From Amoebophrya sp. A120 (taxonomy: Eukaryota > Protista > Dinoflagellata), in assembly GCA_905178155.1 (NCBI GenBank), contig CAJINV010000003.1:888035-952034 (forward strand): 64,000 bases of DNA. Reading direction: 5' to 3'. The notes below the pieces were generated by a model that saw only the letters and a program-made list of their open reading frames with translations, did not search any database and had not been told where the DNA came from. A program made the position numbers and the translations under genes. Positions 1,148 to 59,357 of the stretch are shown piece by piece; the first letter of the stretch is position 1, and the number at the start of each line of letters is the position of its first letter.

Positions 1148-4100
1148 ATGACTGTGTTCGAGGAAATGGTAAAGTACCATGCGGCCTGCATCCAGGAGCT
1201 ACCGCCCTCGGATCAGCGTGCGAAGTTTCAGCTCCAGGAGGACAAGTTGCTAACGCCTGCGTGGACCAACTTAATCGATGTTGTATTGCAGGGGATACCA
1301 CTCGATCAAGCGGCCACGACCGGTACAACAGGTGGAAGCAACAGCAACACTACTTCCATGGCCGTCGCAGCAAACGCTGCTGTTGTAGATATCACAGGTG
1401 CGTTCCCCACGACAACTATGAACGCCGGGAGCAGTAAAACAGCTACGAGCAACACAGGGCCCGACATAAGCAACTTCAGCCTTAGCAACGCCTCTCAACT
1501 GAATCCCCCTCTGGACGGGCGACAGACCAAATTTGTGATCGAATCCCTGCTGCACATGACAAAAAACCCTAATTCAAAGTCCTACCAGTACTTGCTGAAT
1601 TCTCGTAAGGAGAAGGTAATCAAGATCTGCGAAAAGGTGATCACTTCGTTTCTGCCGATTCTGGGCCTGCCTGGCCTGGGGGAGGAAACCAACAGACTCG
1701 TGCTTTTGTCGATGGAACTGTTAGCCAGATTCGACACCGCGGCGTTGGAAAAAATTATGCTTGCGAGCTGTATTTATTCCACTTGCTTCTGTAGTTTTTT
1801 ACTCCTATTTTCACGGAACAACATGCGTAACTGTATCGATTCGACTTTGATAGAAAATTGTGTACTTAGTATAATCTTACTTTGACTTCATTTACGAATA
1901 GCAACGGCAGAAGAATATGTGAATGTTGACGACAAGAAAGGATTCTTGCATGAGCAACATTTCGTTGACTGTACTAAAAATTCTCGAAGTTCTTGTCGCG
2001 CATTATTAAGTAAACCTTGGGACGAACCACAGGCACTGCCGCGAGCGCACTCCGCAACCAACCGGAGACGAACCACGCCGCAACAACCAACATGAGTCCT
2101 CACAACATATCATTGAACCGTAGCCACATTTTGTGCGTGACCCTGTCTATGGAGGCGGTTCACGCCGTGCTGAAGCGGCTGCACCCCTCGCAAGCGCCTC
2201 CACCCTGGAAAACGCGGCTCAGTTTCGCCAAAACGGCCGCAGAACTGGTACAGCATAGCGCATCCCCCTTCGCCTACAGCAGCTCGACGGGCGGCGGCGC
2301 AGACCACGGTGGTATCCAGCAGCAGGACGAGTTCGTGCTCAAAGTCGCCTGCGTCACCCTCATAGGAACGCTGATGCAGTGCTCGAAGCTGTTCGTCGAC
2401 GCGGATTTGCCCACGGCCGCACAGTTCGTCCCCGTGCTCATTCACCAAATCAAGCACACCGACTCCAGGAAAGTTTTCATCGAGGCGGCCTGGGCGCTGT
2501 ATTGATTTTTTAGCTTATAAATTTTTATTTTATTCTTTCAAACGGTGCCTGCTTAACGATGAACCTGAGATTTTGAGTTTTTGTGTCTATGCCAACATCT
2601 CCTTTTCGATAATACTGCCAGTACTTTTTGCCTGCAAATCGAATTCTCGTGTGGTTGCAGGTGAAGATCTCCTGCTGAAGTGCAGTATCTATGTCCGGCC
2701 TTCTCGTATTGTAATCGAAAAATATCGCAATATCAGGTCAAAGCTGACCTGCGGGAATCGGTTCGCCTGTGAGCACATGAGCACAAGTTTTTTGCTGGAA
2801 GCTCTGCAGTCATGTGCGGAGCAACAGAAGCCGGCGATTCGCCCCTTCACCGTGCTGATTCGTCGTATCGCGGGTCTCGCTGGGATAGCGGAACTGCTGG
2901 AGCGCTTCCTGCAGATGATTGAGCAGAAGAGACTGCAGCAGACAGGGGACCCAGCAGGAGCATCCCAGAACATCAACAATGCAGCAGCTGCTCCCGGGAG
3001 CAGTGCACTGTATCGGGAATTGGTGATGCACCTGTGCTGGGTGATCTCGGAAGACACCGAGGACGAGGAACTGTCCGCCGTGAAGGGTGCGAACGACGAG
3101 CCGACGCTGCGAAGATTATTGCAGGCGCTGGCGTCGGTGATTCAGGAGCACACCAACCCGGCTCGGTTTTCCGAGATGGTTGTCGAGGCCGGCGTCAAAG
3201 CCATCGCGAGACTGTATGGGAGTGTCAGGATCGAAATCGACAAAGTCGAAATCGAAAAATTTGTAATGCATAAAATGTAGGGCACGCAAGGCCTGTGTTG
3301 GGGAGCAGGCAAATCAGACCGATTGCAAGCCTGTTTAGGGGAAGACGATGCGCTGCCAGAGTAGCATGACAGGAGCAGTCCTCTTTGCCCAAACAGCATG
3401 ACAAGCTGGATTTTGTTGCTCCCGAAATTTGTCATGCGCCAGCTCGAAACTGGTGCTCCAACTGCTAGCGATTTTATGCATCACAAATTATTAATTTAGA
3501 TTTCGTTGATTTCGATTCTGGCAGTTCCATAGTCTGGGGGAACTGCGTATGGAGCCGCGCATCCTCCAGTTTCTGCGGGACGGGTTGAACACGAATTCCG
3601 CCAACATTCGCACGGCCACCCTGGAGGCGCTGTGCAACCTACTGCTGAAACAGCACCACCTGCTCTTCGTCCGCCAGGCGCCCCACGCCGCGGGGGACGC
3701 CACCGCCGCGCTGGAGGACATCCTGGCTCTCGTGAACAGCAATCTGGACGACAACACGCGCGCGACCAGTAAGGATGAACTCGGGTACTCGCTGCGCCTG
3801 CGCATCATTCTCGCCCCGCTCCGGGTGCGGATGGACAGTATCAGGACCAACACCTCCTTTGACGAACAGCAGTCGCGCTACTACCGCGAGGCCTTCCGAC
3901 GCGCAACCGACGCGATACTGCTGATGAGCACGACGGGTTCAAATGGTGGCCCGCAATGCGCTCATCATCTCCGCAGTTCAACATCATCAAATCGAAACAG
4001 TGGAACAACATCAACTTCGCAACCGCAAAAGACGTACTCCTCTGATGTAAACATAGAGGACGCCGCGTTGCTGCAGCAACTGCTGAGTTTTGGGTCCGAC

Positions 4101-16934: not shown

Positions 16935-19111
16935 ATGCAGCGTAACCCCAACGTCGAGGACGATCAGTTGACGAGTAGCGGAGGCTACGGGTCGCCCGGT
17001 CAACATCTGGGATTTCACTCGCCCCACGAGGGAGCGTTGACACCCCAACTACAGTTCGATTACAATGGCGTTCCCGTCGTGGTCTCCGAGCAGCCGCCGC
17101 CCAGCATCCGCGACGACCTGGAACGGCACCGCATGGAGCTGCGGCGGAAGATGGATCACGAGCGCGCACAGGAAGAGCGCCTCAGCCAGGAGATCTACGC
17201 GGCAAGTAAGACTTTCAGTGGAGCATCAAGCTCCTCGTCCTCCTCAACCTACAACGGTGCGGGCCTTGGCCTTGGCGGCAGCGGAGTTCTTGTAGGTGGA
17301 GCCTCTGCAACAACGTCGACCAGTGGCCGGCGGAGCAAGCACAGTTCCAAACAGCACCGGTCCGCCAGCAGCAAAACCACCACAGCCTCGCCCACCGGAC
17401 CCCCGCCACGCAGCGTGAGCACGACGACGTGGCAGGAGGACCAGCAGCACCAAATGTTGGAGCTGACGACCCAGGTGATGCGCAAAACCCGGTCCGAGGG
17501 CTTCTCGAAGCATGAAGGAAGGAGTATTGTTCAGGCCGACGAGAACCACTTGATGTTTGGCAACGAAATCGAGAATCACTTGCAGCACTCGGTGCGGGAG
17601 CTTGTAGATGAGGAGGCGGAATTATCCAGTGCAAAAGTATCGTACTCAGCATTACAAATTCCAGTTCTCATGCTAAGGAAATTTGTAATGCAATTCATAC
17701 TAGGTAGTATGTACGATCACGATGCTTTTGCAATTCATACAGATTTTACCGCTACAACCAGAGGGAGCTCGAGCAAGCGGAACGGCGGCAATTCGAGTAC
17801 AACCACAGCCAGCACAGCTACCAGAAAGGCGGCAGCACTTCCTCATCTTCCGGACAACTTACCACCAGCAGTAGTAGGGGTGCAGCGGTGAATTCGCAGA
17901 CCCCGGCGCCACAGCTGTGGGACCCGAGCTCCCCGGCTTTTTACGAGCAAAATGGGAACAAGAAGACCGTGTTTTCCTATCACGGCATCCAGATCCAGGA
18001 CCAGACCGAAGAGCACCGGGCGGGGAAGGAGAGCGAGCGTTCGGTGCTGCTAGTCGTGGTCGGTTTTCTCCTCGTGTCCCTCGCGATCGCCATCGTCGTG
18101 ATGTGGTGTGACCTGGCCAGCGAGGAGACGAAAACGCTGCATCGGTACACGCACTGGTGCTCCGCGGGGCTCATCGACTATCTACCAGCCTACTACGCGA
18201 GCTACGCCGTCATGACGTTCACCGTTATCTTGGCGCTAAGCTCCCGGCATCCCACGCTCCGCAGGGCCGTGCAAGAATTCATGGACGCGTGCAAGGCGAG
18301 GTAAGTACTTACTTGGATTCACTATAGGTTACTAGTCAACTTTTCTCACGCAAAAGCAAGTGCTCATCTGTGCAGTAGATGTAGCGATCTTCCTGCGTGG
18401 TTGCACATCACACACACACAGTTCCATGCCACATAAACATTTTTTTCATTTCCACGTAAGAACTAATTTTTGCATAAAGCGCAAGCATAAAGTGGTACAC
18501 AAAAATGACACTGCGAGCGCTGCTTAAGATGCTTCTGCTCCTTGTCTTATCTCGAGGTGCCTGCCGCACCGCTACCGAGCTCTGGACGACGATGGTGCGA
18601 ATGGCTACCCACCAATTACGCCATTCCCCACGGTCGCGTCACACAGGGAAACTCCGTTTTCTGCCCACGAGACCCCGCTGGGCGTATTCGAAGAGAAGAG
18701 GAAGAAAAAGAAAAAACACCACCGCGAAAAAAACAACTCCCATTCCGAAACACGCGAGAAGGAGCAGCTACACCAGGTACTGTGTCCTATTCTTACTGTT
18801 TTTCATGATGTTGAGATCAGTTGGCTTCTGCTTATCATCGTTCTTGCCTCCGTATGGAAGCAACTGTCCGAATGTTTGATCTTCATGTGCTGGAGGTGTA
18901 AGTGTACATCTACATCAATCAAAAAAGTGTATCTAAAAGAAAAACAATCGCCGGCACCACTGTTGAGAATATCTCCATCGTGCCTTAGACTTAGTCTTAC
19001 ACCTACTACTTACACAACACTTACTAGCCCTGAGTTTGTTTCTTCCAGCGAGATCATGCTCTGAAGCGTCTAATCGTCGACGTCATTTTTTTCGTAGAGC
19101 GGTTGCGGTAG
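16935..19111 (+). CDS. Hypothetical membrane protein with two hydrophobic segments; probable exons 16935-17620, 17743-18300, 18557-18776, 19049-19111
   Basis: Removing 122 nt around the element at 17623 shifts into the frame of ORF 17888 (EEAEFYRYNQRELEQAERRQ...). TM-like stretches are VLLVVVGFLLVSLAIAIVVMW and YAVMTFTVILAL. The last two exons rest on GT-AG phase compatibility only. Confidence 0.55.
17623..17739. mobile_element. Intronic TIR element, family A
   Basis: tatccagtgcaaaagtatcgt ... acgatgcttttgcaattcata. The flanking repeat is degraded (ggaat/cagat). Internal gcattacaaatt and aatttgtaatgc. Removing 122 nt restores frame. Confidence 0.8.
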
Positions 19112-19471: not shown

Positions 19472-22400
19472 ATGTCCTTGGAAACTAGCAGAACTATGGC
19501 GACGCACACAAATGCAGCAGACGGCCCGGGCCCCCCTGTCGTCCCTCTCAGCGCGTCCCGAAAGCTATTGGGGTTTCTGAATCGTATCGTTCCCTGTTCA
19601 ACCAAATGCTGTCCCCCTCCTGAACAGTCTTCGCGTAGCGAGCTAAACACTCGTCGCACACTCCACCTAGTCAGTGCGGAAGACTACAACCGACGGCATT
19701 CCCTGTTTGGGCCCGGATGCAGTCGCGCCGTGTCCTTTTTCGACGCCAATGACGGTGGATTGAACGTCGAGGAACAGACCGAGCTGCTGCTCGATTCCGC
19801 GATGTCAGTGGTTGTCGGAAATTTGGATTTGGGTCTATTGCCAGAAGATGACAACTCTCCCGGAAGGCAGAGCAGCAAAAGTCGCACCCTGGCTCGGTCC
19901 CGTCTGCGGCAATCCCTTTTCGGAGGCGACCTCTTCTTCGAGGATCTGGATCGCGCGCGACGAACAGGAACAGCCCGGAGATCGACGGAATTTTCTGACT
20001 TTCCAGAAATTAATACCACTGCCGCGGACCAAACGATAGAAAACGACGACGACGGTGATGATCCAGAGCAGCAGCTTTTGAACGCAGCCGCAGTCCGGGC
20101 GCTGCAACAGCAACAAGGTGGAAGCCGGGGTGACTCACAGAGCAGTGCGCTTTCGGGAGAAGATGGTCATCGGTTTCTGACCCCATACGGATCATACCAC
20201 CCTTCGTACGCGAGTAGTCTGGCACACCTTGCGGCCGAGGAGAAGCACGGACAGCTAGAAGGACGTCAGCAAGGGGATCAAGTTTTGTTGAGCCACGTCA
20301 ACTCCAGCACCTCGCTTGTACTGACCGACGAACATCAAAATGGTGACCCGTTGCCGCCTAGCGTCATGAGTTTCTATCCCCCGACTACAACGTGGCATTA
20401 CCACGAGAATGCGGGCTGCACCGATGGCGAAGACCTCGAGCGCTTCTTGTCGCCGTTGCCGGAACCCACCAAGCCGACGCGAAAGCAAAAGCCAAAGAGC
20501 AAGGAAGCGTCAGAGCGGACCAGTAAAGGTCGCGCAGCACACCGTGCAAACGCAAAGAGAAGCAAACAGGAAACCAGAGGGGAGCAGAGCAGCAGTGGGA
20601 TCATAACATCAACCACGACTGTGGCATCGGCGCATACAAGTAGCAGTCATGGGACCACAGCCAGTAGTAACAGCATCGAGTACGTCGAGCACGACACAAC
20701 TGATACTAGCGGCCTTGTCCATGGTGGAAGCACTACAGACCAACAACAACACCCTCCTGTAAAAATAACCTACCCTGTGACAGTTGTGCCTAGTCGTGAA
20801 CGCACCAGCTCCTGCCGCAAACCGCAAATCATTGCTCACATCCATTCCCATTCCTATGTCTCTCACACACTAGCATTCTGTCCTCTTGTTGATCTCAGTA
20901 GCGCGCTATCTATTAGACTCAGTCGCACCAAAACGACAACGTCATCAACGAGTCGTGGCTAAATATATTGGCACGTAGCGACGCTAGCGCCGAAGGTCAG
21001 GGTGAATGAAAAAGGACACGGGTCGAGGACGAACGCGTCTTTGGTCCTTACACCTCCAGATAAACCGTGCGTGAAGTGAAAGAGAAAGATGTTCTCTTTC
21101 TTTGAAATGCACACAATCCGATGCCAAACGAAATATCGAAAAAACAGATACGGCAAAAGACAGCGGACATCCACGGGCTGATGGCGTCGAAGATTGGGCG
21201 AAGTCCACTCGAGGAGCCTGATGCGGCCGCGCTGGAAGAAGCAGCGGCAAAAATGACAAGAGCCTTGTCCGGGAGCTCGCCGCCTGGCGTTGACGTGGCC
21301 AAGAACAACAGCGCTACAAAGGGAACCACCACTTCCACGGACGGCCAAGCGTCGCAAAAGCGCAGCGGTAGGAGGACCAGCAGGACGAACGACCCAACTC
21401 AGCGGGCTTTGAAGAAGGAACATCGCAAAATGAAGATGCAAGCACAGCAGCAGCAGCAGCTCCACCAACAGCAGCAGAGCGGGACGGCCAGCGGATTTGC
21501 GACGCCAGGGGCGGGACCAGCCACTGCGGGGCTGGATCTCTCGCTGCAACACGCGAGTCCAGTGTACAGCGAAAACGCCTGGGCCAGTTGCATGGGATCA
21601 TCAAGTAGCAGCTCCTCCTCCTCGAGCGAGTCCGAGTCCTCGGAGTCGGAAGAGGACGGTGGTATGAGCTGCAAAAGTATCGTACTAGTATGAATTGCAT
21701 TACAAATTGGCTTAGCATTTACAAATTAAATTTGTAATGCGGATTCGCCGTAAGAAAAAGATTTGTCATGCGTAAAAGCAATTAGTACGAGCACGATACT
21801 TTTGCACAGGATTGTTGGAGGAGACATCCAATTTCGCAACTTTCGGGGACTGCGCCCAGAAGTTCGCGAACAAGTCTTCCGCGAATTGAATGAAGGTACC
21901 AGCTTCACGTTTACGTTTTTCTCACGACTCGATACTAGATTTTGATTTCATCAATCTTCGATGGCCGCTGTTAAGGACTCGCATCTTCGGGCTTGTTCTG
22001 TTTGTAGTATTCGGCTTCTACTCAAGCGCAAGAACTCGAAGGCGAACCAGTTGACCGAAATTTTTCAAAGCCAAGGTGCCGACTACTTCTTTGATGCGAT
22101 TTTCAAAAATCTAAAACAGAGCAAATCCTGATAATTCGGGCACTCATCGAGGATTTGAGCCGCGGCGTGATCCAGCGGATACACCCTCAAATGACGCCAG
22201 ACAAGGTGGCGTCCTTCTGCCGCTTTTTCGGTGGTGCCGAGTGCGGTTGCATGCGGTTCCTCAAGGTTACCGGCTGGGACCGGCGCAAGGCCATGGAACG
22301 GATTACTAAGGCAACGTTGTGGCGCCACCACGAATATGGATTGCAAACATGTCTGGGTCTGGAAACATGGGACTTGTAATGCTAGTCCCACACTTCTGTA

Positions 22401-24287
22401 AAATCTGTATTGCATGATTAACAAAAAAGACGCCCTCTTTGGTCATACAAAAGCGCAGTTTCTCATGCGGAGTGAGCATGAGAGAGCGTTCTGCAAACTT
22501 GTCATGCACATGCTTGGCTGCATTGGGTAATACTTCAGCTATCCACAGTTCAGCATCACAAGTTTCCTGACCCAGACATATTTGCACAGGATAACGAAAT
22601 GCCGAGACTCCGCCAAACGTGCCGGGATGTGCTGGATGAGTTCAACGCCGTTCCGAAAGAAGCCGTGTTTCCTTGTACAGTTTTTTGTTTTCATCTTTTG
22701 GTGTAGTCTGTGTCAGCGTGGTCAACACAGCTGTTACTCCACCTTCATAAGGAAATTTATTTTTATGTGCGGAAAAGATCTAGCTTTCATGCTGCTCAAG
22801 AACACTGGTGGCCCTTCTTCTGATGTATTCTGAGACCTAGTATTTGCAGTTGCACTGACTTGCTGCCCAAGAACGGCCGCATAATTGTTCTACTAGGTGT
22901 CGGCAGCTACTACACAGACCGCGCGTATCAGGCGTACGACGGGTCTCCCGTGGAGTTCTGGCGGCTGTCCAAGATCAACTTTACGAAGCTGTTTGCGAAG
23001 TACACGGAGGACGAGTGCGAGCTCGCGTACGTAAACTACGTCCTGCGGAAGGAGGAGACCTGCCGTCGGTGCCTATGCATTGCAAAAGTATCGTACTACG
23101 TGGTAATTGCATTACAAATTCGCTTAGCATTACAAATGAAATTTGTAATGTGGTTTTACCTTAGAAAGGAGATTAGTCATGCATAACAGTAATTACTACG
23201 AGAACGATACTTTTCCAGAGCATAGTGCCGCGCGCAGGGCATTTTCGCGGTGATTGACTGCAAAAACGCGAGCGTGAGCAGCATGGTGTGGCAGGTCCCG
23301 AAGCTGAAGATCATGATCCGGTTATCCTGAGTAAAACCGTACCCACACCAGAGTTGTAATGCAGATTTGCAAAGACAGGAAGACCTGTAACGCACATCCC
23401 CATGAGAGCCATTTCCTATCGTGTCTCGGAATTTGTGATGCTGTGTACAGGATGAGCAGATGAATCTGTGATGCGGCTGCACTTGCTAACCTGCACTACA
23501 CTGCAGAGTGCAGCTTGTCATGCGTGACTCACAAAACTCCTCGGTTTGTGTTGCAAAATCCCCATCCTGACTCTGGTGTGGGTACGTTTTTACTCAGGAT
23601 ACCGGTTCATGGGTAAATACGGTGAGCAGTTTTTTCCGGATTCCATCTCCCGCGCGCTCGTGTACAATGCGCTATCGCAACAAAAAATTGTTACAGTTAC
23701 ACATTGTGTTGCAGGCCAAGCAAGACAGACAAGCTCTGCCATGCCGGATGTGCATAGGGGCCTCGTTTCATAGGTGTTTTCCCGTAGGATCTCTGCATTA
23801 CAAGTTTCCTCACTCATGCAGAGAAATTTGTGTTGCTGAATTCGCTACAAATGTGTAACTGTAACACTTTTTTCGTGGGATATGCGCCGAAGGGCGCCGA
23901 CTACTTCTGGAAGCTGTTCTCCTCCGTGTTAAGCGCCGCGACGATATGACCGTGCACAACTTGCCCTGCTGCTCTCCCTCATTTGAAGGGCAGGAAAAGC
24001 AACACAAGCAACAGTAGAAATAGAAAAGGGGCTCTCGCATGACAAATCTGCGCGCGGCTTGTAGTACTGTTGGATGAGGAGGTTCCGAAATTTGTCATGC
24101 AAGTAGTACTTACGAGCAAGGTGCGAGTTTGGTATTTTGCATTACAAATGAGCAGGGGGAGGGGGGTTGTGCACTCTCATAGACGAGGGAAAAAGTGCAG
24201 ATTGTCTCGACCGATGGCCGGGAGGAAATCTCGAAACTCATGGACCTCCGGATCGTCTCCCAACTGGAGCAGCTGCTGCCGGAGTGA
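19472..24287 (+). CDS. CRAL-TRIO/Sec14-like lipid-binding protein, paralog 1, with 3 GT-AG introns and 6 TIR-element introns
   Basis: After removing GT-AG introns 20759-21147, 21896-22119 and 22675-22896 and the elements at 21663, 22335, 23074, 23323, 23673 and 23945, the protein reads FFGGAECGCMRFL..WRHHEMPR..FPCVGS..YDGSPVEFW..EETCRRCRAQGIFAVID..MIRFMGKYGEQFFPDSI..YNAPKG..TREKVQIVS..LLPE*. This is collinear with the intron-free paralog at 25398. The join of the first exon is the least certain part. Confidence 0.8.
21663..21813. mobile_element. Intronic TIR element, family A
   Basis: tatgagctgcaaaagtatcgt ... acgatacttttgcacaggatt. Flanks are ggtgg/gttgg. The removed length is 156 nt and contains an in-frame stop. 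Confidence 0.8.
22335..22593. mobile_element. Intronic TIR element, family B
   Basis: tatggattgcaaacatgtctgggtctggaaac ... gtttcctgacccagacatatttgcacaggata. Exact acgaa repeats at 22330-34 and 22594-98. Removal gives WRHHEMPR, matching paralog 3 WRCVDLPR. Confidence 0.9.
23074..23224. mobile_element. Intronic TIR element, family A
   Basis: tatgcattgcaaaagtatcgt ... acgatacttttccagagcata. Exact gtgcc repeats. Removing 156 nt gives TCRRCRAQG. Confidence 0.9.
23323..23601. mobile_element. Intronic TIR element, singleton with 32-nt near-perfect TIR
   Basis: tatcctgagtaaaaccgtacccacaccagagt matches the reverse complement of the right end with 1 mismatch. Exact ccggt repeats. Removing 284 nt gives MIRFMGKYG. 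Confidence 0.92.
23673..23882. mobile_element. Intronic TIR element, family C
   Basis: tatcgcaacaaaaaattgttacagttacacatt ... aatgtgtaactgtaacacttttttcgtgggata. Exact tgcgc repeats. Removing 215 nt gives YNAPKG. Confidence 0.9.
23945..24181. mobile_element. Intronic TIR element, singleton
   Basis: tatgaccgtgcacaac ... gttgtgcactctcata. Exact gacga repeats. Removing 242 nt gives ATREKVQIVS. Confidence 0.9.
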
Positions 24288-29017: not shown

Positions 29018-32000
29018 ATGCGAGAAGGCGAGCATCACCAATCTTCGCCGAGCACCGACGGGGGTGTGAAGATGATTCAACACGACGACAGCATGTTCGT
29101 GCGAGAGCTGACGGAGAAGAATCTGAACGGGTGTGTTAGTGCGAACGTCGGCACTGATGAAGCTGCACTGGACCAGGACCACAGCAAATTTGAGGACTGC
29201 AGCATTTCGCCGGACGATGTGACCCTGTTCAACAAAACCGCCGGACAGCATGGTTACACAAAGATATCATCAGCTGAAGTTCTCCCGCCGAGTTTGCGAG
29301 ACACAACCGCCAGTGAAGAGAACCCGGATACTAGTGATGCCAGGGAGAATACGACCAATACGACTACCGCTTCCACCTCGACCTTCAACCGCACGAGCGA
29401 ATGGTACAAAAATAATCTGTACCGTGGGCGCGAACCGGACCAGTTGCCAGTCGCCTGGGAGCCCGGGCTATCACAGGAAAAAAGTGTTACAGTTACACAT
29501 TTGCTGGAGTTTCTGCATCACAAAGTTGCTCGACATGGCTAAGAAAACCTGTGATGCGCAGACTATAAGGGAAAACACCAATGAAATGAGGATGGCAAGC
29601 ATTTCCTGCATGACAGAAGTTGCCTGTCTTGCTTGTTTCGCAACACAATGTGTAACTGTAACACTTTTTTCTTCGCATACGGACTCACGGCCGCGGACTT
29701 TCACCCGGCCGAGACGGAAGAGGAATTTTGTCTATGCATTGCAAATATGTCTGGGTCTGGAAACTTGTAATGCTAAAAGCGCATGAGAGCTCTACTGCAA
29801 TACGGAGCCACGCATGACAAATTTTTGGGCTCCCTTGTGTTGCGTGTTCCGCATGGCAAACTGCGTTTTTGCATGACAGTTAAGAAGACCGCTTCATGCC
29901 CATGCATGACAGATTCTTGAGTCATGTCAGACATGCATGACAATGTAGCAATCTTCCAGACCCAGACACTTTTGCATTCCATATTGTCGTCGCTACACCT
30001 ACTGGCGCTTCCCCTTCATCACCGCGGACGGGCGCCGGAAGACGCTGCAGACCTTCGGCGCGGACGTGACTGAGGAAAGCTTGTTGACTGTCGGAACATT
30101 AGGTGGAGCAAGAAATAACAATAGTAGTTCTACAAACGCAGCAGGAGCAGGACCTCCAACAAAGGCAGGATACAGTAGCAAAGCAAACAACATCTCGGTT
30201 TCCAAGCACGAGCTGCTGATGAAGCAGATGCTGTGTTTTCTGCTGAAGTTTGTGTGCAACCGCGAGGCGATCAACGCGCTTCCGATCGTAAAAAAGAAAG
30301 CTCCCTGGTGCGAAGCGGTCACCCCGCTGGCGACAGCGGCGAGCATCCAGTTTCTTGGCGGCTATGAGAACGTCGCACTGCGGTACTTGAAGCTGAATTC
30401 CTGGCGGCTCACGAAGGCAAAGCTTTCTTTGATAGAAGCCATCCGCTGGCGGTGCGTGGACCTGCCAAGGATCTTGCTGCACACCAAACCCTCCAGCGAG
30501 AAAAACACCACCATATTCGCGCCAGCGCTGGCCCCCTCGGCGCTCCGAGGACGCAGTGCGTCTCGGGGCTCGAAAAGCGGTCCGAATAGTCGCGGGAGCA
30601 CAAAATCCAAGAGCCGGGCGCGGAGCGGTAGTAGCCCCCGATCGGGGAAGGAACGGGAGATGAACAGGGTGGAACATCAAAGCCGGGAGAATAGTGCCGC
30701 AGCAGGAGGCGCTGCAAAAACCAATTTGCTAGAGCAGATGACAGGAGGTTTGTCCACAACTGTGACTACCCCTGTGGCCACCACCCCGCAACCTCCAGAG
30801 AAGGCGTTCGTCGGCGAGCATTTGTTTTCCCGTCGCCTGTTTCCGATCATGGGGATACCGTTCGTGGAAGTAACGCCCCTTGCAGACATTCACGACCTGG
30901 TGCAAAACCCCGACAGGCTAAATCCGAAGTCCTCCTATAGAACTGCAGGTATCAGTAAGCGCAAGTAGGACCGCTATAATAAAGAAGTACCGTTTATTCT
31001 CATGATGTTATGGTTACACTTGTATCTGTATCATCTACATCTATTAGTACAGCGCAAAAATAACGAAGTTAGAAGTAGAAGTTGCGAGTAGAATACTAAT
31101 GTCAAAAAGTTGCATCCACTACAGGAGCCGCTACGATAGCAGTTTCCGCTATCACTCCGGGCGAGACTCCGGGCGGCGCGGCGACATCACAGCTAGAGTT
31201 GGATTTGCTAATGCGCTTCGAAAGCAAGACAAAACCCGGCAGTGGCACCCCGGGAAGATATAATAATGGCACAACAGCAGGAGGACCACATGGTCGTACA
31301 GCAGGTGCACCAGAGGGGGAAACGAGTCCGGATTCGTCGCCCACCGTGCAGCCGCGACCGAGAAGGAGTATGTTGGCACGGTGCTGGGGCTCCCTCTCTC
31401 CGAGAAAAAGGAAACTTCGAAGCAGCATGAGTTTAGGTAGTACACCGACTCCCGCAATGTCACGAGGCGGGAACAGCAGTAGTACAACTTCTTTTTACAG
31501 CAGTGCCGTGCCGCACCCGAGTTCTTTCGCAGCAAAAGCAAACGGCACAAACGAGGAAACCACTACGAGTACCGCGTCGTCTTCGGCGAAGGGTAATGGG
31601 AATGGGACATCATCAGCTCAGCACCTCCCAAATGGAGCTGCTGCAATATTGGAGGAAGTGGACGCAAGGTCGGAAACTTTTTCCTTTGTATCGCTGACCG
31701 ACCCGCAACCCTCCCCGCTCGGCCCGCTGCGGGGCGAAGGTAGCTCGGGCGTCTCGAGGTTCAACGCCAGCGCCACAATTATAACAGAGACCGAAGAAGA
31801 GCAGGACGTCGGAGCTGTTGTTGTGCAGCCTGCAGGTGGTGCTTCCACGAACAACGACACAAGTTCTTCCACGACCGCGAACAATACAAACGCTCGCCCC
31901 GTCGGTAGTTCCCGTGCGCAGTCGAAAAGTCTCTTGAACATGCTGTCGAGTCCGATCTCCTCGCGCGCGACGCCAAAAGCCCCTTCTAGTATGACGACGC

Positions 32001-33469
32001 CCTCGTCCGCAGGAGGTAATCCTTACCAGATATTCGACCAAGGCAGCAGCGGCGCAGGCGGCGCGCCGCAGCTGCACCTGGATCCAGCACTAGTGGCGGA
32101 GATCGCCGGCGGCAGGATCGAGGCGGTGCTGCACAACCCGAAGGTCGTGCCCTCATCGCCCTCGTCGTCCGCCTCTCGGGTAGTCGTCCGAGACGACCAA
32201 AATGCCGTTTCCCCAGCCGCCACGACAAACTCGAGCTCCAGTGTTTCTAACCCGAAAATAGTTTTAACAACAGCAACGAAAGGTTTAGGTTCCTCAACCA
32301 CGACGTCTTCGAAAATGGAAACAAAACCGCGAACGGACCCGCTCCGGAACGTGAAGATTTACCTGGCGTACGACGGCAGTCCAGTAGAGTACTGGCAGCT
32401 GAAGCACCTGGACTTCGTATCGAAAGGAAAAATCCCCCCTCCCCATATCAAAACGGAATTTCTTATGCTGGATTTGTGTACACAAATCAGGTCTGTATTG
32501 CAGAGAGGCACTGTGGCCAGATCCCCAGGCTAGGCAGGGGCGTATGGGTCTAGTTGTTCAGCATGGCAAACGGCGCCCCTTTAGGCCCAATTAGCATGAC
32601 AAAGCGCTTCCATAATGGGGCGGAAGCTTCTGCCCTCGTCTTCTTGCAAGACAGATGTGATTTGTGACCTCAAATCAGCAACAAATATATCAAATATCAC
32701 CTCCAGGGCTACGTGCGACCCCTCCGACGCTGCGTGTGGAAGGAGGAAGTTCGGCGTGTTGGGGGTGAGGGACCCCCGACGTTGGCCTACGGATATCATG
32801 GGGAACTAAGGCTCAAATCAGCAACACAAATTCCCGGAAACATACCTTTTCGATATGGGGAGGGGGGATTTTTCCTTTTGATACTTCGAGACCATGTTTA
32901 CGGAGTACAGCACGGAGGAGGCGACGCTGGTCTACGTGCACTACTTGTATCCGAAGTAAATTTCCTGTACACGTACAAATGCGGTCTCTGCATGGCAAAA
33001 CTTGGCTTCGATCCTAGTTTTGCATGACAAGCTTCACACTCCAAATTGGGAAAATTTGTGATGCATCTTGTGCATGTACGGAAAATTTGTATTGCATAAC
33101 TTGGAAGCCAAGGAGCGCGTGTGCCGCGCGACCGGCTCTCGGCAAACGACGCTGCTCCTCGACTGCGCCGGCGTCAGCATGGGGCACGTGGCCACCTGTA
33201 CCAAGTTCATGCACCGGTTCAACAAATCGTGCCTGAGTCTCGGGGACAGCTTCTACCCCGACGGCGTGAAACAGACGTGGCTGGTGAACATGCCCTACGC
33301 GGCGGCGTTTCCGCTGAAGGTAACCCTGAGTCTCCTTGCCCAGTCAACAAGGGAGTCCGTGCGGGCCTTCACGCGCAACTCCTCGGGTCTGCCACCCGAA
33401 ATCCTCACATTGTTGCCGCTGGAGGAATATGAAGCCCTCACCGTCCCGATGGAGAACTCCGTCATATGA
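29018..33469 (+). CDS. CRAL-TRIO/Sec14-like protein, paralog 3, with 1 GT-AG intron (30949-31124) and 4 TIR-element introns
   Basis: The spliced product contains ALRYLKLNSWRLTKA..AIRWR, YDGSPVEYW, DFETMFTEYS..VHYLEAKERVCR and SFYPDGVKQTWLVNMP, collinear with paralog 2. A long S/T-rich insert lies within the domain. Confidence 0.8.
29469..29679. mobile_element. Intronic TIR element, family C, inverted relative to the copy at 23673
   Basis: tatcacaggaaaaaagtgttacagttacacatt ... aatgtgtaactgtaacacttttttcttcgcata. Flanks are cgggc/cggac. Internal gttgcctgtcttgcttg is the reverse complement of caagcaagacag(a/g)caa in the 23673 copy. Confidence 0.9.
29733..29983. mobile_element. Intronic TIR element, family B, inverted relative to the copies at 22335 and 58451
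   Basis: tatgcattgcaaatatgtctgggtctggaa ... ttccagacccagacacttttgcattccata. Exact ttgtc repeats. Removing 256 nt gives EEFCRRYTYW. Confidence 0.9.
32418..32883. mobile_element. Intronic TIR element, 466 nt, singleton
   Basis: Approximately 38-nt TIR beginning tatcgaaaggaaaaatcccccctccccatatc. Exact cttcg repeats. Removing 471 nt gives LDFETMFTEY. Confidence 0.9.
32948..33098. mobile_element. Intronic TIR element, family D
   Basis: tatccgaagtaaatttcctgtaca ... tgtacggaaaatttgtattgcata. Exact acttg repeats. Removal gives HYLEAKE. It is a close sister of the element starting at 47662. Confidence 0.9.
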
Positions 33470-47171: not shown

Positions 47172-50100
47172 ATGTCGAAGGGCGCGGCAGAGGAGCCAGC
47201 GTCGGCCTCAACAGCTGGCGCTAAGACAAACTCGTCCACAACGATTGCAAATCCACCTGATCTCCCGACTATCGACGAGAACAGTACTGCACCGGTGGTC
47301 AGGAAACGGCTGGCGCCGAAACGCGGCGAAACACAGAACGACGAGGAGGAGCTCACGCCGGAGCAGCTGGCGGAGTACCAGCGACGCCAGAAAGCCGCCC
47401 GTCAGCGAAAAGTGTACCGCTCGGCGCTTTTTAAGGTCGGCGCATTCACGTTGATGGTGGTCGTGGCTTTGGGGGTGAAGTACGTGCAGGAATTCTTCAC
47501 AACCAAGTGGTGTGCGACGGTGTACGTGGACGAAAGCGCCGGGAGCTCAAGAACGTCTACTACTTCTGTGAACACGGACTTGTTTGTCCGCGTCGAAAGA
47601 GTGGACAACGAAGAGGACGGCGAGGCGCTGTGTCTGGACGAGACGGAATTCTTGGTGAAAATATCCACAGTAAATTTCCTGTACACGTACAAATGCGGTC
47701 TCTGCATGACAAAACTTCGCTCCGATCCTAGTTTAGCATGACAAGTTTTACATTCCATATTGCTGAAATTTGTGATGCATCTTGTTCTTGGCATGGTACG
47801 GAATAACAGCAGCTCCATCGTGATTGGCGTTTTTTCTCTACTTGAGCAAGAACTGCAACAACAACAAACAACACTCAACCGCTCAACTTCCGCAAAAGGA
47901 AGAACCTTCCTCGCAACTCATGAGAGGGGCCTTCTTGGTCTCCGGTCCTCGGTCCTCAGTCGCTCGCAAGGGAATACCTGAAGAGCTAAGAAGGTCGAAA
48001 GCTGAGACACATGAAAGGGAGTTTCTTGGTCTCCGGTCCTCGGTCCTCAGTCCCTCGCATGGTAATACATGACGAGATAAGAATGCAGAAAGCTGAGACA
48101 CATGAAAGGGGGTTTCTTGGTTTCCGGTCCTCGGTCCTCAGTCCCTCGCAAGGTAATACCTGACGAGATAAGAAGGTAGAAAGCTGAGACACATGAAAGG
48201 GGGTTTCTTGGTCTCCGGTCCTCGGTCCTCAGTCCCTCGCAAGGTAATATCTGACGAGATAAGAAGGTAGAAAGCTGAGACACATGAGAGGGGGTTTCTT
48301 GGTCTCCGGTCCTCGGTCCTCAGTCCCTCGCAAGGTAATGGCTGACGAGATAAGAAGGCAGAAAGCCCAGACACATAGGAGGGGGCTTGTTGGTCTCCCA
48401 TCCTCGGCCCCCAGTCCCTCGCGAGGCAATATATAAAGAGAGAAGAAAGGAGAAGGGGGACACACATGAGCGGGAGTCTGTTGGCCTCCGGTCCTCGGTC
48501 TGGACGCCCGCGAAAGTGCGGAGCTTTGTCGTGTGTTTTTTGTTATTTTTTCGCTCGCCAGTTACAGTTCTGGAGGAGCAAGTCGCTGGGGCCATGTCGG
48601 CCGCCATTGGAAGAATTCAGGCGCGAGCGCCCTTTTTCTTCTTCAGAGCTGTAGCACCGTTGAAGGCGATGGAGGTGCTATGAGCTGTCGCTGCGAAAAG
48701 CCGCCCGATTCTCTATGGCGAACGCACTCGATAAAGCTAGGGCCCCTGCGATCCTCCGGCGGCACACTCGGCCCAGCGTTGCTCCTCCTACGAAATCGCA
48801 GGCAGATCATCAACACCACCCCAATATGGCACCTCGTTCCTCTTCAAAAAAGCAGGAGTGCCGCAACAGTGGCAGCAGTCAATCAAGAGCGCTCTCGAAG
48901 GTCATTTTTGAGGATCTGCAGCGCTACGGTAGTAGCAGCCAGAAGAGCACCGCGGAGGAAATCAACCGCAATCGCGTTGGTTCTGAGGTCCTTCCCAAGC
49001 GAGCAGATCGGGAAGTTTAAAAGTGGCACCGTCGTCACAGCTTTGACGATCCCGATAATTAAATCAAGTTAAGAATCAGAAACAGGCAACACGGCATAAC
49101 GGGCGAGGTCCGGTCTCTAGAGTTATCCAAATGGATGGAGATGAAAGCAATGGGCCTTGAACATTTGACGCCATGCCCAGGCACGAGAGAAAAAAAGCGA
49201 GAAAGCTCTCCAAGCCAGGCGATCGGCCATTTGTTTTCCGTGGAAGTATTCTTCTGGGCTTGTCAAGTATCAGGCTCCTGCTTCAGCAGCAGCACCCTGC
49301 GGGCTTTACTACGGCTCTTACGAAGCGAAAGGGCCGAGCTGTCGCGGTTTGAGCAATGCCGTCGAGCAAGATAATAAGAGGGATTATGTTGGCGGATTGC
49401 AGTTCACTTCTCGGCTTTCTGCAATGTGCAGAGCGGAGCGCTCCCATCCTTTACAGCAAGTCCGCTACTTGCTCCAATATGACACAGATTGAGATAGTGA
49501 GAAGATCAACGCACCCTCCCACTTCAGACCAATTCGGCGCAGAAGATCAGCACCGCCTTCAAATGCATCCAGATCCGTTTTCTTATTCTACGACTTTCAT
49601 CCACCACGCAAGCCGGTTTTTTTTCATTTCCCAAAACCAAAGCAGGACAGGGAAGCTGATAGACTCACTTACAGCCCAGACCTCACAGCTCGGCGCATCA
49701 TCATCAGAACGCGCACGATCGGAGGCGGCGGAATTGTGGACGCAGATGTCAGGGCGAAAGTATATCTCCTCCCAAGTTGTTGACTAGTAGATTGCTTCCG
49801 AGGTGGCCCCTTTTCATTTCTACTCCGCCGACACTGGCAAAGAAAAGCGTAGAAGTGGAGCGAAGTGACTACGTGCGATCGAGTGAGAGAGCGAAACGGA
49901 CTGACTATGTGCGAAGAACAGCCCAGGAACAAAGGCCGCGACTATGTGCGAAGGAGTGGGAGACAGCGAGTCTAAGTGGGTAGCAAGCGAGTCGGGCACT
50001 GCCCTACTCGCCTGCCTGATGTCTTTCCGCAGCGCTCGCAGTCGAACTCTCGGCCAAGTTGGTCCGTCGCTGTTTTGACGCGACGGAACGAAGCAGAGGA

Positions 50101-53100
50101 CGCGCGCGAGACAGCGTCACTAGTCGGCTTCACTTGCCGGGCAAGCTTTCCCAAACCGACACTGGCTAAAGCGTAGAAGTGAAGCGAGGCGACTCTGAGC
50201 GAAAGAGTGGGCGAAGTGAAGCGACTACGTGCGAAGCACAGCCCCGGATCAAAGAGCGTGGCGGTGTGCGGCGATTTCTCGCCGTTTTGAGTTTGACGCG
50301 ACGGAGCCGAACGAGGTGGGCAGTTCCATTTGGGCGCCTTCTTGTGCCACCATCGTCGCCGGTGTGTGATGATGGTGCTGGTGTACATATGTCGAGCAAG
50401 AGAAGATCTCTCTTGCCACTCATGTCACAAAGAAACTCGGGCGCGCCGCGCAGATGTCGGCCAACGGCGCTCGCGTATATCGGTCACCGACCGGCTGAGA
50501 AGGCCGGCGATGTCTTTTGAGTTCGGTCCTTGGTGTACTTTTACACGAAGAAACTGCGCGCGCATTTGAATGTGGCAGGAGTTTCCGAAAGTCGGCGCGC
50601 CTATAAATACCTAGTGCCGCGCGGGGAAAACCTGTCCAAAAGCGTGCGCTCGTGTGCCGTAGCCCGAGCGCAGCGCCATCATCATCAAAATGCGGCAGGT
50701 TTTTTTCCAGCAAGCGGCGGCCTACAACGCTCCGGAGATTTCCTGCAAGCTACGGAGGCAGGCGGCAGGCAGGTAAGTTCCCTCGCGTGCAGCGACACGA
50801 GTATCAGCATCGCCTTGCTTCGCCACCTTTTGCTTTTTGCGGGGCCGCAGAAATGCTCGCCAACGGCCAACCCACGCACTCGCTGCGGGTCGCGCGGTGC
50901 TGTGATTTCACAGGAGGAGGCCCTGGCGCTGCTGCGCGTCTGTGTCGCTACTGGATCGATGTCATCAAGGATGTGCGGCTACTTGCTCCACATGAGTGAT
51001 GGCGTATCTATATGCGCGCGGGCTACTGACTGGCAAAATGCAGCCTTTTTTCGTAAGAGAACGCCACCCCCTTCGCTTCGTTCCAGCGCGCAAACTTTGG
51101 GCCATTTTGTAAGATTTCAGCTCTTTCCTACACTAAGAACGCAACACAGTCCGGCCAAATGGGCTCGCGCGCTGACAAGCCTGCCGGGCCGGGAGGGTAT
51201 TTGCCTGCCGCTCGCCGGACGTCGTGTCGTACCAACGGGCCGCCCGCCGCTGGCCAGACGGTGAACAACCAGGGACCACATTAGCAACGCTAGCAGCGCA
51301 GCCGAAAGGGGGGCGAAGCAAGCAGTTTTCAGCTACACGGGCCGGCTTTCGTCAGCGGCGGCATGGATGTCGTTGCGCACGAGGTCCCCCGGGGGGGGGT
51401 GCCGAAAGAGGCCGGCGCGTTTTTTTTTCGTTTTCCCATCCGGCCCGGCGGTGGGCAGTTGGCTACCCCTCGCAAGGGCCCTGAAGGTGGCAGCGGAGGG
51501 GGAACCAACGCCATCAGAGGAGAAGCGACGCGAGCTCGGCATGATCGCGCCGTCGGTCGAGAAAGATCTCTGGGCGCGCAAAACGGGCTGTATCCGGGCG
51601 CTGTAGCTGTACTGTAATAACAGAGCGGATGGAGGTCGACTTCTCAGACACAGCGGCATCGGCTTCGGAGCCACATGCGCCGGCGCAAAAGTGGGAACGC
51701 CAGTCGGCCCGCGTCTGGGACGGCAGCACAGCGGCTCGCGGAGTCTGTCGATGTGCTGCGAATCGCTGCAGCGGGCCAGCACTTTGCGAGGGAGGTACTA
51801 GCAACACCGGCGGGCCGGCTACCGGGACCGGAGGCCACAAACCTCCCTCATATGTGTCTGTTGTTTCTCCCTTCTTGTCCCGTCGCGTATTAATTGCCCC
51901 CAGATGAACTGAGGCCCGAGGACCGGAGACCATCGGCCTCCTTCTTATGTGTCTGGCGCTTTTGCCTTCTTATCTCGTCATATATTACCTCGTGACGAAG
52001 TGGGGACCGAGGACCGGAGACCAACAACCTCCTTCTTATGTGTCTGGCGCTTCTACCTTCTTATCGCGTCAAATATTACCTCGCGATGGAGTGAGGACCG
52101 AGGACCGGAGACCACCAGCCTCCTTCTTATGTGTCTGGTGTTTCTCCCTTCTTGTCTCCTCATATATTACCTCGTGATGGAATGAGGACCGAGGACCGGA
52201 GACCAACAACCTCCTTCTTATGTGTCTGGTGCTTCTCCCTTCTTATCTCCTCAAATATTACCTCGTGATGGAGTGAGGACCGAGGACCGGAGACCAACAA
52301 CCTCCTCTTTATGTGTGTCAAGTGTCTGCCATTTTATGTAGTGCGTTGCTCTACATGAGATTCCTTTAGGATCTTCTGTCGTTACTTTTTCAATTCCTTT
52401 TAGAGCACAAACACGAAACACGATGGAGCTGCTGTTATTCCGTGCCATGCCTTGTTCTTGTACATGTTGTACGGAAAATTTGTATTCCATAGAAAAACGC
52501 CAAAGCGTATCACGGACCAGCGTTCCTCGCGGATAAGGTGGTGCTCGACAAAATCGTGCAGGAGACCGCAAACGACGTCGACGCGGTGGTGGTCTCCGGT
52601 ATTCACCTGAAAGAGTGCGCAGCGGCGGCAATGCGCGCAGACCTGAACGCGGCGGAGAAAGCCGCGGCCTGCCGCACCGGAAATTTGGCGCAGGCAGTCG
52701 TGCTCTGCCACGGAAAGAGGCCAAGTATAATCTCAGTCTCACTGCAGCTTTTTTATCATTTGAAAGAAGCACGTGTATGCTACGACACTCGATACCGCTG
52801 TCGTTTTGCGCATTCTCTCGCGGCCGACACGGAACCCGAAAAAGTCTTCCTAAGTTGTCTCGTGACTATCACTATTTATCCAAGAAAAAAAAACTCCAGG
52901 ACTCCTGTCCTAAGTTGTCGTCGTCCTTACTTCGGAAAAAATGAAAACTACCTTTACAAACAGCGGCCGAGTGGGCACATCAGCGCATCAGTGACATTTA
53001 CCGGGACCACCGGATCAACCACTGGCTGCACATTGACATCGATTGGCGTAGCGACCCCGACCTGGTCGCCGATGTTGGGCGGTCAAAAGTTGAACTCGCG

Positions 53101-53856
53101 ACGCAGTACAAGCTCGTCTTCGCGCGCCGGTGTTATCCAAGAAAAAACACCCATCCCCATACAATTTGTCATGCAAAACATGCATCAAATCCACTATTTG
53201 TCATGCAAAAAATGGATGGGGATGGGTGTTTTTTCCTCGATAAGTGTCCGCTCGAGGCTATGGTCACTCCGGATTACCTCGGGCGACCCAGCGGAGGCAA
53301 GAAACCCACAGCCGCAAACACAGCGGTGTCAAAGGCCGACAGTGTCAGCGCAGCGCCGATCAAGTTTGTCCCGAACGCGAGGAAGTGGATTTCCTATGTG
53401 ACAGTGAAGAAAGCAGCAGATGTTGATGGTGCCGAAGTTGTTGACCATGCAGAACTCCAACCTGCGTCCATCGCTGCGATGATGCAACCCCGCAAGCTGA
53501 GCGACGCCGGAGAGCTACAGCCGGAAATCTACACGAAGCCCAAGCTGGTGATCGACAACTTGCTGTGGCTGGCCTGGAGGTTCGATTTCGACCCAGTCGC
53601 CTGGGTCAACAAGGAATTCCACCGCAATAAGACGGCAGAAGTGGCGAACGGGAACGGCACGCCTCGCTTCCACCTGCTCCGCTTCAACCTAGAGACCATG
53701 GAATTCGGAGACTGGAGTGAGGAATGGTTTTCCCAGAAAAAGACAGAATTAAACGCTGCCACGCAGGACGCGACAGACGTCGCAAAAGTCGAGTCAATAA
53801 AGGAAGAATGGGGCTGGACCCTTGACAGTTGGGCGGCAGCTATTGTCTACATTTGA
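47172..53856 (+). CDS. Hypothetical single-pass membrane protein, exons 47172-47661, 52497-52724, 52964-53133, 53248-53856
   Basis: TM segment VGAFTLMVVVALGV. Removing 4835 nt between the gaaaa repeats joins EFLVK-NAKAYHGPAFLADKVVLDK in frame. Further joins use GT-AG intron 52725-52963 and the element at 53134. Confidence 0.7.
47915..48500 (+). repeat. Left subterminal tandem array, 91-bp unit, about 7 copies
   Basis: gctgagacacatga recurs at 48001, 48092, 48183 and 48274. Core sequence is tctccggtcctcggtcctcag. Confidence 0.95.
51820..52320 (-). repeat. Right subterminal tandem array, 91-bp unit, about 6 copies, inverted relative to the left array
   Basis: gaccggagacca recurs at 51921, 52012, 52103, 52194 and 52285, and is the reverse complement of the left-array core. 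Confidence 0.95.
53134..53242. mobile_element. Intronic TIR element, singleton, shortest (109 nt)
   Basis: tatccaagaaaaaacacccatcccca ... tggggatgggtgttttttcctcgata. Flanks are ggtgt/agtgt. Two tttgtcatgc motifs. The removed length is 114 nt, in frame and stop-free. Confidence 0.85.
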
Positions 53857-56911: not shown

Positions 56912-59357
56912 ATGGGTGTGGTGTCACAATTTCTGCTTCCACCAGACCACGCCGGAGTCCCATCCTTGCCCCGACATGTCGCGGGAAAGAATTTCGAAGC
57001 AACTTCTCCCGGTCTTTCCGAAGACCCCTGGTCCCCATCGTCTTTGTGGACCGGAACCTCAGCGCCCTCGTCCTCGAGCGGGAAGAAAATTACCCTCTCT
57101 GTTTCCGCTCATCCGTTCAACGAAATAAAAAAGTCTGCTAGAAGTAGTTCTTCATCATTTCTAGACACGGTCGGCTCGCCCGCCAGGTCCGGCTCTTTCA
57201 AACGGATCCGCCAGCGGCTACGCAGTGGGCGGACGACACGGCTTTCGTCGCAAGATTTCTTCCCAACAAACGGCAGCGACGGGGGTTGTATGGTCACGAC
57301 GGCGCAAACAAGTGTTGGCAAAAATCTTCACGAGTCAGCAAATGGTACAGCGAAACCGAGCCAGCATGTAGCAACGAGCTTTTTCCCGACCGTTTCCCCG
57401 GACCTGGTATCTTCTCTGGTAGCCGGCACGGGCACTCAGGTCTTGCGACGCGGCACCGGCCAGCTGGCCAGGTACCTGTTTGGCGATCAAACCGCAGGCT
57501 CTAGTACAACTTCCGCGTTTGGTGTCAGCAGCGCCTTTCACCCGCTCAGCGGGGGAGGTACTATGGGCAAGAAGACGGCACAGCAGCAACTACACCAGAC
57601 TCGGTTGCTGGAGGGAAAACTCAGTGGAGGGCGTAGCAGCAGACACACCTCGTTTCTGTCCCTGGCGGAGAATTTCGGGGCCATCGGCATCTTCTACGGG
57701 GTCGGCATTTTGATGTACGGCTTCACGCCCCACGATCAGTGGTCCGACAGCTACTTCCCCGAGGACAAGGGAAAGCCGGGGTTGGTCGACTGTCTCATCG
57801 AGGGCGGCTACTACGCCACACAGGTTTTAACCACCATCGGCTACGGCGACGTGTACCCCAAGGGGAATTTTCTGCGCATCGTCAACATCTTCTACATCCT
57901 CGCGGGCGTCGGGGTCGCTGGCTCGCTGGTCTTGGGAACCATCACGGACCAGATCACCGACAGGTGAAAATAGTTTTAGATGCTGCAGGAGTTTCATGAA
58001 CTGCGCGGGCGGCTCAATTTTTCGTCGCCTAAGCACGCAAACTCCAGCTCCTGTCTCTCCCTGTTTTTGCTTGTTCGTTGTTTGTGAACAGATGTTATGT
58101 CCGAGCTGCATCACGTCGTTCTACTCCAGCAGATCGAGGTCGTGTAACTCTCATGCAATCATGATCGACAAAATAAAATTTCGTGCCACATCAACATTTA
58201 TTATATACCAGGGTGAAAGACGCCGAGAAACGGCAGTTGCTGGCCACGCTGACGGACGCGGGTGATCCGCATGGTGCGGGTGGTAGTATGGAGAAGCCGG
58301 AGCGCGACCGGCTGAAACGACGAATGGAAGTGACCGAGGGAATGCTACTCGTCACGGTGCCCACGCTGCTCGGGTCTTTGGTGTATGGAGCCGTGCACAA
58401 CTGGGGCGTCGCGGGGTCCCTGCACTGGGCCGTCGTAACGAACTCCACCGTATCAAATGCAAAAATGTCTGGGTCTGGAAGATTACGAGACTTGGCATGC
58501 TTGTCTGGGATGGCCAAAAAGCTTGTGATGCGTGTCCAAGAAGAGACTTTTTTGTCTTCCATGCAAAAACGCAGCTTGTCATGCAAAAGTCGCAACAAAA
58601 CGAAGCGCAGACATTTCTAATGCTTCGCTGGGCATTACAGAGCGTTCACTATTCCCAGCGCAGCATTACAAGTTTCCAGACCCGGACACATTTGCACTTG
58701 ATAAACCGTCGGGTTCGGGGCCTACAGCATCGACAACCGCGCCATGCGACTGTTCTCCATTGCCTACATGAATATCGCGGTCGCCAGTTTCGCGCTGGGT
58801 CTCACGAAACTCACCGGCGTTTTGTTGGACGTATTTAATATATCACGACATTGATTTTGATTCTGATTCATGAACATGATCAGTTGTCGCTCTTTTCTTG
58901 CAGCTATGCCTTCAGTTGAAAATTTTGTGAGAAAGCACAAAGTCAAGTGTGTCCATTGCCGCATGAACTGATGTGTAGTTCCCATGATCATGAGGCTTTC
59001 TTCTAGTTTCATCAGAGTTGTACTCGATGTGCATGAGTAACTTCTCCTCGCTTGAAACACGAACTACAGGAAGTACAAAGCAGCGAACTGGACCCGGACT
59101 CTGTCACGCTCGACCAAGCCTTGGGGATGGACAGCGACGGCGACAAGCGCGTGGACAAGTACGAATTTGCGACCGGTTGTCTCCTGTCCTGCGGCAAGGT
59201 AACGGAAACCGACATGACGCAAATCATGAACCGGTTTCGCCAACTCGACCGGGACGGAAACGGCTTCCTCACCATTGAGGACCTCCCGGGCCAGTCGCAG
59301 CAGGGACAGACGCAGCCGGAAACTACACGACAGCCGACCGGGGCTGCTGCACAGTAA
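56912..59357 (+). CDS. Two-pore-domain K+ channel with two C-terminal EF-hands (TPK-like), exons 56912-57963, 58212-58450, 58709-58830, 59070-59357
   Basis: Pore 1 is LTTIGYGD. Pore 2, NSTVGFGA, appears only after removing the element at 58451. EF-hands are DSDGDKRVDKYEF and DRDGNGFLTIEDL. GT-AG introns are 57964-58211 and 58831-59069. Confidence 0.88.
58451..58703. mobile_element. Intronic TIR element, family B
   Basis: tatcaaatgcaaaaatgtctgggtctggaa ... ttccagacccggacacatttgcacttgata. Flanks are caccg/aaccg. Removing 258 nt restores TVGFG. Confidence 0.9.

Follow-up and report, generated by a model that had tools for sequence, protein, structure and literature searches.

The introners of the dinoflagellate Amoebophrya sp. 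A120 carry inverted repeats composed of TAT, seven variable bases and at least three A (Farhat et al., 2021, PMC7789003), and they have been described as having border direct repeats of 3–5 nt, many strain-specific families and non-canonical splice sites (PMC7789003; Gozashti et al., 2025, PMC12130899). In 22 of the 58 rows of the A120 dataset, the superfamily is always given as "Unknown", and the values taken as target-site duplication (TSD) lengths are 2–5 or none (PMC12130899). How A120 introners move, given that no transposase was found, and how splicing proceeds without U1 or GT–AG were left as open questions in the source paper (PMC7789003). In this study, we analyzed a 64,000-nt stretch of A120 DNA (GenBank assembly GCA_905178155.1, contig CAJINV010000003.1, positions 888,035–952,034 of the forward strand; hereafter the window, numbered from its first letter), in which 15 introner-like elements share an internal motif, GCATBACA(A), where B is G, T or C.

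Subterminal transposase-binding sites are known for TnpA of CACTA elements and for Ac, and the hAT element Hermes reportedly carries subterminal transposase-binding repeats as well. In the Emigrant/Lemi1 system, the subterminal repeats reproduce part of the terminal inverted repeat (TIR), can lie in either orientation and bind the transposase cooperatively (PMC1636448). In the Ginger2/TDD group, the TSDs generated by TDD-4 and TDD-5 in a protist are 5 bp long, and Ginger termini are TGTNR (PMC2836005). An A120 introner family with TIRs and homology to long terminal repeat (LTR)-integrase-like proteins has also been reported (PMC12130899).

The elements of the window resemble the published A120 introners in their TAT-start inverted repeats, short border repeats and non-canonical splice sites, and the published size classes are similar (in 22 of the 58 rows, about 106, 149, 208, 252–260, 278 and 305 bp; PMC12130899). 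Because the end consensus and the size classes match, we treat them as A120-type introners; they show the TIR pattern, the short border repeat, repetition in the genome and removal from RNA without GT–AG, the last on two of the 15 elements. The published descriptions give direct repeats of 3–5 nt and mention no internal motif in the text searched; here, the duplication has a uniform length of 5 bp, and all 13 families seen are linked by a single internal motif that has a preferred spacing. The 4–5 bp TSD is shared with Ginger2/TDD elements; membership in that group fails on the termini, which are TAT(G/C) here and not TGTNR, and no integrase-like gene was found in the window.

The elements also resemble miniature inverted-repeat transposable elements (MITEs) and other DNA transposons with subterminal repeats: they are short, non-coding TIR elements with TSDs, and a short, constrained motif lies inside the ends in both orientations. 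Unlike subterminal repeats of those transposons, however, the motif is common to families with otherwise different TIRs, shows stronger conservation than TIR positions 4–10 and is spread over the whole element, and the elements are spliced out without GT–AG. To our knowledge, no cognate transposase is known for them. No description of the motif was found in the literature reachable by open search, which leaves subscription papers, theses, figures and bioRxiv supplements beyond reach, and three motif strings had no match in 13 of the 14 supplement files of PMC12130899. The elements themselves are already known; what appears undescribed is the internal site, with its 31–33 bp spacing, and the uniform 5-bp duplication.

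The Internal Motif and Its Confinement to Introners

The window contained 36 copies of GCATBACAA, whereas 100 dinucleotide shuffles gave a mean of 1.72 and a maximum of seven, so that the observed frequency is clearly above background. All 36 copies lay inside elements, 33 of them in the 14 short elements, which total 3,162 bp, and three near the left terminus of the long one. None was present in the 56,008 bp outside elements, which include exons, GT–AG introns and intergenic DNA, and the 8-mer GCATBACA had two matches there. Shuffling the 14 short elements yielded a mean of 0.25 copies and at most two in 500 shuffles, compared with the 33 observed. The scarcity in exons and GT–AG introns that the initial annotation had noted by eye stands. 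Because the count outside elements is no lower than chance would give, the motif is enriched inside them rather than depleted elsewhere. At least one GCATBACA was found in each of the 15 elements, in either orientation, as had been claimed; the example sequences and start coordinates quoted there were correct, and even the minimal 109-bp element retains two copies, in line with the claim that the motif persists in minimal elements.

The motif is longer than the 9-mer. From 603 matches to a matrix seeded on this core, the fuller site reads approximately GCA(T/A)(G/T/C)ACA(A/G)(A/G)TT, with the variants GCAACACAA, GCAAGACA and GCATGAGAA; the last occurred 62 times in 189 elements and never outside elements in the window. 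A TIR transposon of another kind, nested in the long element at 47790–52451, served as a negative control: it contained no GCATBACA, no matrix match in its interior and one loose 8-mer. The motif is therefore not general to TIR elements of this genome, as judged from this one control.

Elements were defined by a start TAT(G/C) and an end that is its reverse complement, and 15 were delimited in the window, 13 from a paired-end search and two from a half-end list, with a single change at one end of the element at 21663–21813. The short elements are 109–466 bp long and non-coding, with TIRs and a 5-bp direct repeat at their flanks. Across all 15, this repeat was perfect in nine, identical at four of five positions in five and at two of five in one. 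The 15 elements belong to nine families and so are not 15 independent cases; for this reason, the TIRs that had been called unrelated deserve that name only beyond about position 13, where they become family-specific. Up to there they share the core TAT-S-N6-AAA within the terminal profile TAT-S-(C/A)-A-N-T-G-C-AAA, with A at positions 11–13 at 0.82–0.93 in the family-weighted profile. TAT was a calling criterion; even so, in copies mapped without it, terminal TAT differed at only 7/690 positions. Positions 4–10 are drawn from a small set of recurrent versions; the two ends of an element have different versions, and the same versions reappear in several families, which suggests end exchange or conversion among elements, and identical terminal 10-mers begin both the 150-bp and the 265-bp families. 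Scored against the motif matrix, 58 ends had a mean of −11.6, compared with −22.2 for shuffled ends (P = 7e-11), far below the site threshold of 12; one window end scored 19.1.

Independent copies came from metagenome sequences queried with two convergent copies of the motif, which gave at least 154 loci in the 26 of 64 parts scanned. Among the matches listed, 150 of the 154 loci were from one assembly prefix, JACKZZ01, and held the same families as the window, with a median identity of 77% to the window copies; the other four were short palindromes without element ends, at about chance level by estimate, and no locus orthologous to the window was among the matches listed. Viral contigs gave no match to the motif pair. 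From 190 distinct candidates, 175 with TAT…ATA ends and at least 4/5 repeat identity were kept and 15 were dropped. The query pattern was absent from 52 of the 175, which were hence not chosen on the motif; a strict copy was present in 51 of these unselected elements and a match to the window-trained matrix in all 52. When 29 clusters were merged by hand, 13 families resulted; four of these, each a single copy, have no member in the window, and all 13 carried the motif. The elements are thus repeated in the genome, with families recurring in the window and among the 150 JACKZZ01 loci listed. Two families were mapped with no requirement for a TSD, and the 5-bp repeat was perfect in 91/115 and 15/21 of their copies, and the target sequences of 147 perfect repeats showed no clear base preference.

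Two of these loci held unusual arrangements. A 268-bp element with ends of the 150-bp family (L139:267–534) is possibly a composite of two copies, and a palindromic, element-derived stretch at L006:639–792 has arms identical over the 26 bases compared and no TSD.

Spacing, Conservation and Strand of the Motif

Same-orientation pairs of the motif 31–33 bp apart were found in nine of the 13 families (66 unselected elements). The weighted count at this distance was 6.5, compared with 2.3 for the best 3-bp window under the null, and was reached in none of 2,000 permutations. The spacers between such pairs were unrelated among 18 clusters (0.32, against 0.29 when shuffled). Three turns of B-DNA measure approximately 31.5 bp. 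Spacing from the element ends, a check proposed in the initial annotation, showed clusters at 35, 40–41, 43–46 and 48–53 bp.

In two families, using cores that were not query-selected, the core diverged from the family majority at 23/676 (3.4%) and 26/498 (5.2%) positions and the spacers at 654/3,656 (17.9%) and 508/3,190 (15.9%), values that changed little without CpG. The core was thus three to five times more conserved than the spacers, with some bias toward conservation because sites were defined on the majority sequence. Within the 265-bp cluster, motif positions were conserved at 0.90–1.00 compared with 0.75. TIR positions 4–10 were as variable as spacers, positions 11–24 diverged at about 7%, and terminal TAT, with 7/690 and 0/126 differences, was less divergent than the core (P = 0.003 for 7/690). 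The two copies of the TSD mismatched at 29/570 (5.1%) and 8/105 positions in the two families. Core divergence is therefore close to TSD mismatch, as expected if the sites drift after insertion, and together with the lower variability of TAT this leans toward a motif that is selected during transposition and ends that are selected by the host.

The host strand could be assigned with confidence, by a simple codon score, for 114 of the 189 elements, in which 173 motif copies were sense and 195 antisense; 38 unselected elements had 58 sense and 73 antisense copies. The larger families insert in both orientations.

The elements lie in apparent coding sequence. Long open reading frames (ORFs) of the window are mostly on the + strand (18/20), and after removal of the element and one repeat, the best-scoring frame was free of stops in 15/15 cases over 45 bp on each side and in 11/15 over 90 bp, with + as the best strand in 13/15 and 14/15, respectively. 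Six registers were examined for each of the 15 elements, and none offered GT–AG. A contig of run X3, presumed to be RNA, lacks a 176-nt GT–AG intron and the elements at 32418 and 32948; judged by length, the 60 nt between its aligned pieces are what is expected if each element leaves with one TSD copy. This comparison covers two of the 15 elements. The summed depth of DNA contigs was 8,000–130,000 over element bins and 42–57 elsewhere, which is not a copy number.

Proposed Mobilization of the Elements and Possible Alternative Roles of the Motif

Considering these results, we propose that the motif is probably an internal double-stranded DNA site for the protein that mobilizes these introns, acting in the manner of subterminal repeats. 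The initial annotation had suggested a cis-acting binding site for the mobilizing enzyme or for a dedicated splicing factor; the conserved core and recurrent spacing point to a constrained site, and a mobilizing enzyme appears to fit the sequences better than a splicing factor. In the proposed model, one trans-acting enzyme would spread the elements, and because of the 5-bp duplication it would probably be a DDE transposase or an integrase. Its sequence-specific domain would grip multiple sites lying on the same side of the helix, and its catalytic part would engage the termini, whose conservation is weak; continued spread would then be limited to copies with the motif. For removal from RNA, the terminal fold-back together with the TAT ends would be used and not the motif. 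The conserved 12-bp site and the spacing rule across all examined families argue for one mobilization system and not for many transposable element classes.

Several observations weigh against this interpretation. Neither a transposase nor an autonomous copy was found in the window, and the 22 ORFs and six read-through frames of the long element gave no Pfam match at the cut-off (best E 0.0019). Sites are spread throughout the element and not only near its ends, and the likeness of the termini to the motif is weak. Convergent pairs 41–43 bp apart occurred in only four of 13 families (P = 0.089 with a look-elsewhere control; an earlier test with finer clusters and no such control had given P = 0.0025), and a general 10.5-bp period was not supported once the 30–33 peak was removed (P = 0.24). 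Core differences in copies with perfect and imperfect TSDs were 15/532 and 8/144 (P = 0.12), a contrast that was not significant and was absent in the second family, and redundant motif copies could hide selection at the level of the host. In addition, no transposase was detected in A120 by Farhat et al., who argued against mobilization by such an enzyme (PMC7789003).

The motif might instead be bound, still as double-stranded DNA, by a host protein that would flag the element either for chromatin packaging or for splicing that is co-transcriptional and independent of U1; elements would then keep the motif because insertions lacking it would kill genes. Such a factor, which we regard as unlikely, would explain the strand indifference, the spacing, the universality and the conservation of the motif equally well, and would suit an organism in which U1 small nuclear RNA (snRNA) was not detected (PMC7789003), and in which two elements are missing from a spliced contig, yet none of the 15 has a GT–AG register. 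However, variation in the core is similar in extent to the mismatch between TSD copies and exceeds that of terminal TAT, which suggests that selection after insertion is slight; a weak likeness of the termini to the motif is what a transposase site would be expected to show, but not the site of a host factor; and the terminal fold-back would already provide an orientation-free splicing cue, since the first and last 20 nt pair with a mean probability of 0.78 in predicted RNA folds. Joining the two functions, so that one protein drives the approximately 2,000 published A120 introner families, with their TAT ends, 5-bp duplications and helically spaced sites, and also marks the elements for precise U1-independent removal, is a bolder proposal that we hold to be quite doubtful.

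A role in RNA, where a splicing protein or a variant snRNA would recognize the motif or where pairing of the motif would stabilize the fold-back, seems very improbable to us, even though motif bases were more often paired in the predicted folds than other internal bases (0.74 vs. 0.59), copies paired with each other in 49 of 132 folds, and a sense copy is usually available because 104 of the 114 oriented elements carry copies on both strands. Six of the remaining elements were antisense-only and four sense-only, both kinds in coding frames; together with the lack of strand bias, this means that a splicing factor or snRNA acting on single-stranded RNA fits poorly, and a single-strand RNA signal is unlikely. 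The variable fifth base matched in just 75 of 138 convergent pairs (0.43 expected), and G, T or C at one position would fit no single guide base. The motif had no set place relative to the splice site, with no fixed distance to either splice junction found, and no Rfam family was matched within the window. Least probable of all is a neutral relic, in which internal duplication, deletion and the shuffling of modules would have derived all families from a single ancestral element. The shared terminal consensus, the identical terminal 10-mers and the short internal segments common to some families speak for common descent of this kind; this explanation is nevertheless largely refuted by a core far better conserved than the spacers within families, by a spacing kept despite unrelated spacers and by the presence of the motif in 109-bp elements.

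A tyrosine-recombinase mechanism was also considered. A coupling-sequence model, drawn from window mismatches at TSD positions 1–2, failed on the larger set, and a Crypton-like element was rejected on the full 5-bp duplication of variable sequence, with mismatches over all five positions; Crypton-like elements are described as having no target-site duplication (PMC12130899).

The site, the spacing and the 5-bp duplication make the question of the mobilizer testable. The motif could be used as pulldown bait for the enzyme and as a target for mutagenesis, and could serve as a signature with which to annotate these introns and locate the autonomous element.

Individual Elements and Neighboring Sequence

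The elements are densely clustered, with several within 1–2.5 kb and short exons between them, both in the window (21663–24181) and at loci such as L002, L051 and L057. The 265-bp family is represented at 22335–22593 (three strict copies plus variants, perfect 5-bp TSD), 29733–29983 (five strict copies with tandem spacings of 33 and 31 bp, perfect TSD) and 58451–58703 (four strict copies with a 31-bp spacing, flanks identical at 4/5). The 150-bp family includes the elements at 21663–21813, with three copies at spacings of 43 bp (convergent) and 31 bp (same orientation) and flanks at 4/5, and at 23074–23224, with two strict copies on the + strand, two degenerate ones on the − strand and a perfect TSD; a short member at 17623–17739 has two convergent copies 42 bp apart and flanks at 2/5. 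The 210-bp family occurs at 23673–23882 (one strict copy plus variants, perfect TSD) and, in the opposite orientation, at 29469–29679 (three strict copies, flanks 4/5).

A 310-bp family introner at 3215–3531 contains five strict copies, three on the + and two on the − strand, with flanks at 4/5, and the 280-bp family element at 23323–23601 has five sites, all antisense to the host gene, and a perfect TSD. A perfect TSD also flanks the 235-bp family element at 23945–24181, with three strict copies, and the two elements absent from the spliced contig, namely the 466-bp element at 32418–32883 (one strict copy plus variants) and the 151-bp family element at 32948–33098 (two strict copies). The right terminus of the latter consists of TAT and a near-perfect motif, with the next copy 31 bp away. 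The minimal 109-bp element at 53134–53242 has its two copies 32 bp apart, both antisense, and flanks at 4/5.

The element starting at 47662 is a copy of about 160 bp belonging to the 32948 family; it extends to 52491 because another transposon is nested inside it, leaving pieces at 47662–47789 and 52460–52491; its three strict copies lie in the left 120 bp, and its TSD is perfect. This 4.8-kb interval was considered as an autonomous copy and rejected, being a nested insertion. The inserted TIR element (47790–52451) is 4.66 kb long and non-coding, with an 8-bp TSD, GG termini and inverted 91-bp tandem arrays at 47919–48500 and 51821–52316, features that we take to be reminiscent of Merlin or Mutator-like elements. 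The introner that hosts it sits in a coding frame.

Host ORFs on the + strand between 7392 and 57964 encode importin-beta-like (below the cut-off), ankyrin-repeat, CRAL/TRIO, RsmB/F methyltransferase and ion-channel domains. The 16 long host ORFs of the window contained no transposase domain, and 11 of them had no Pfam match. A 19-bp tandem repeat of 4.9 copies is located at 62635–62727.

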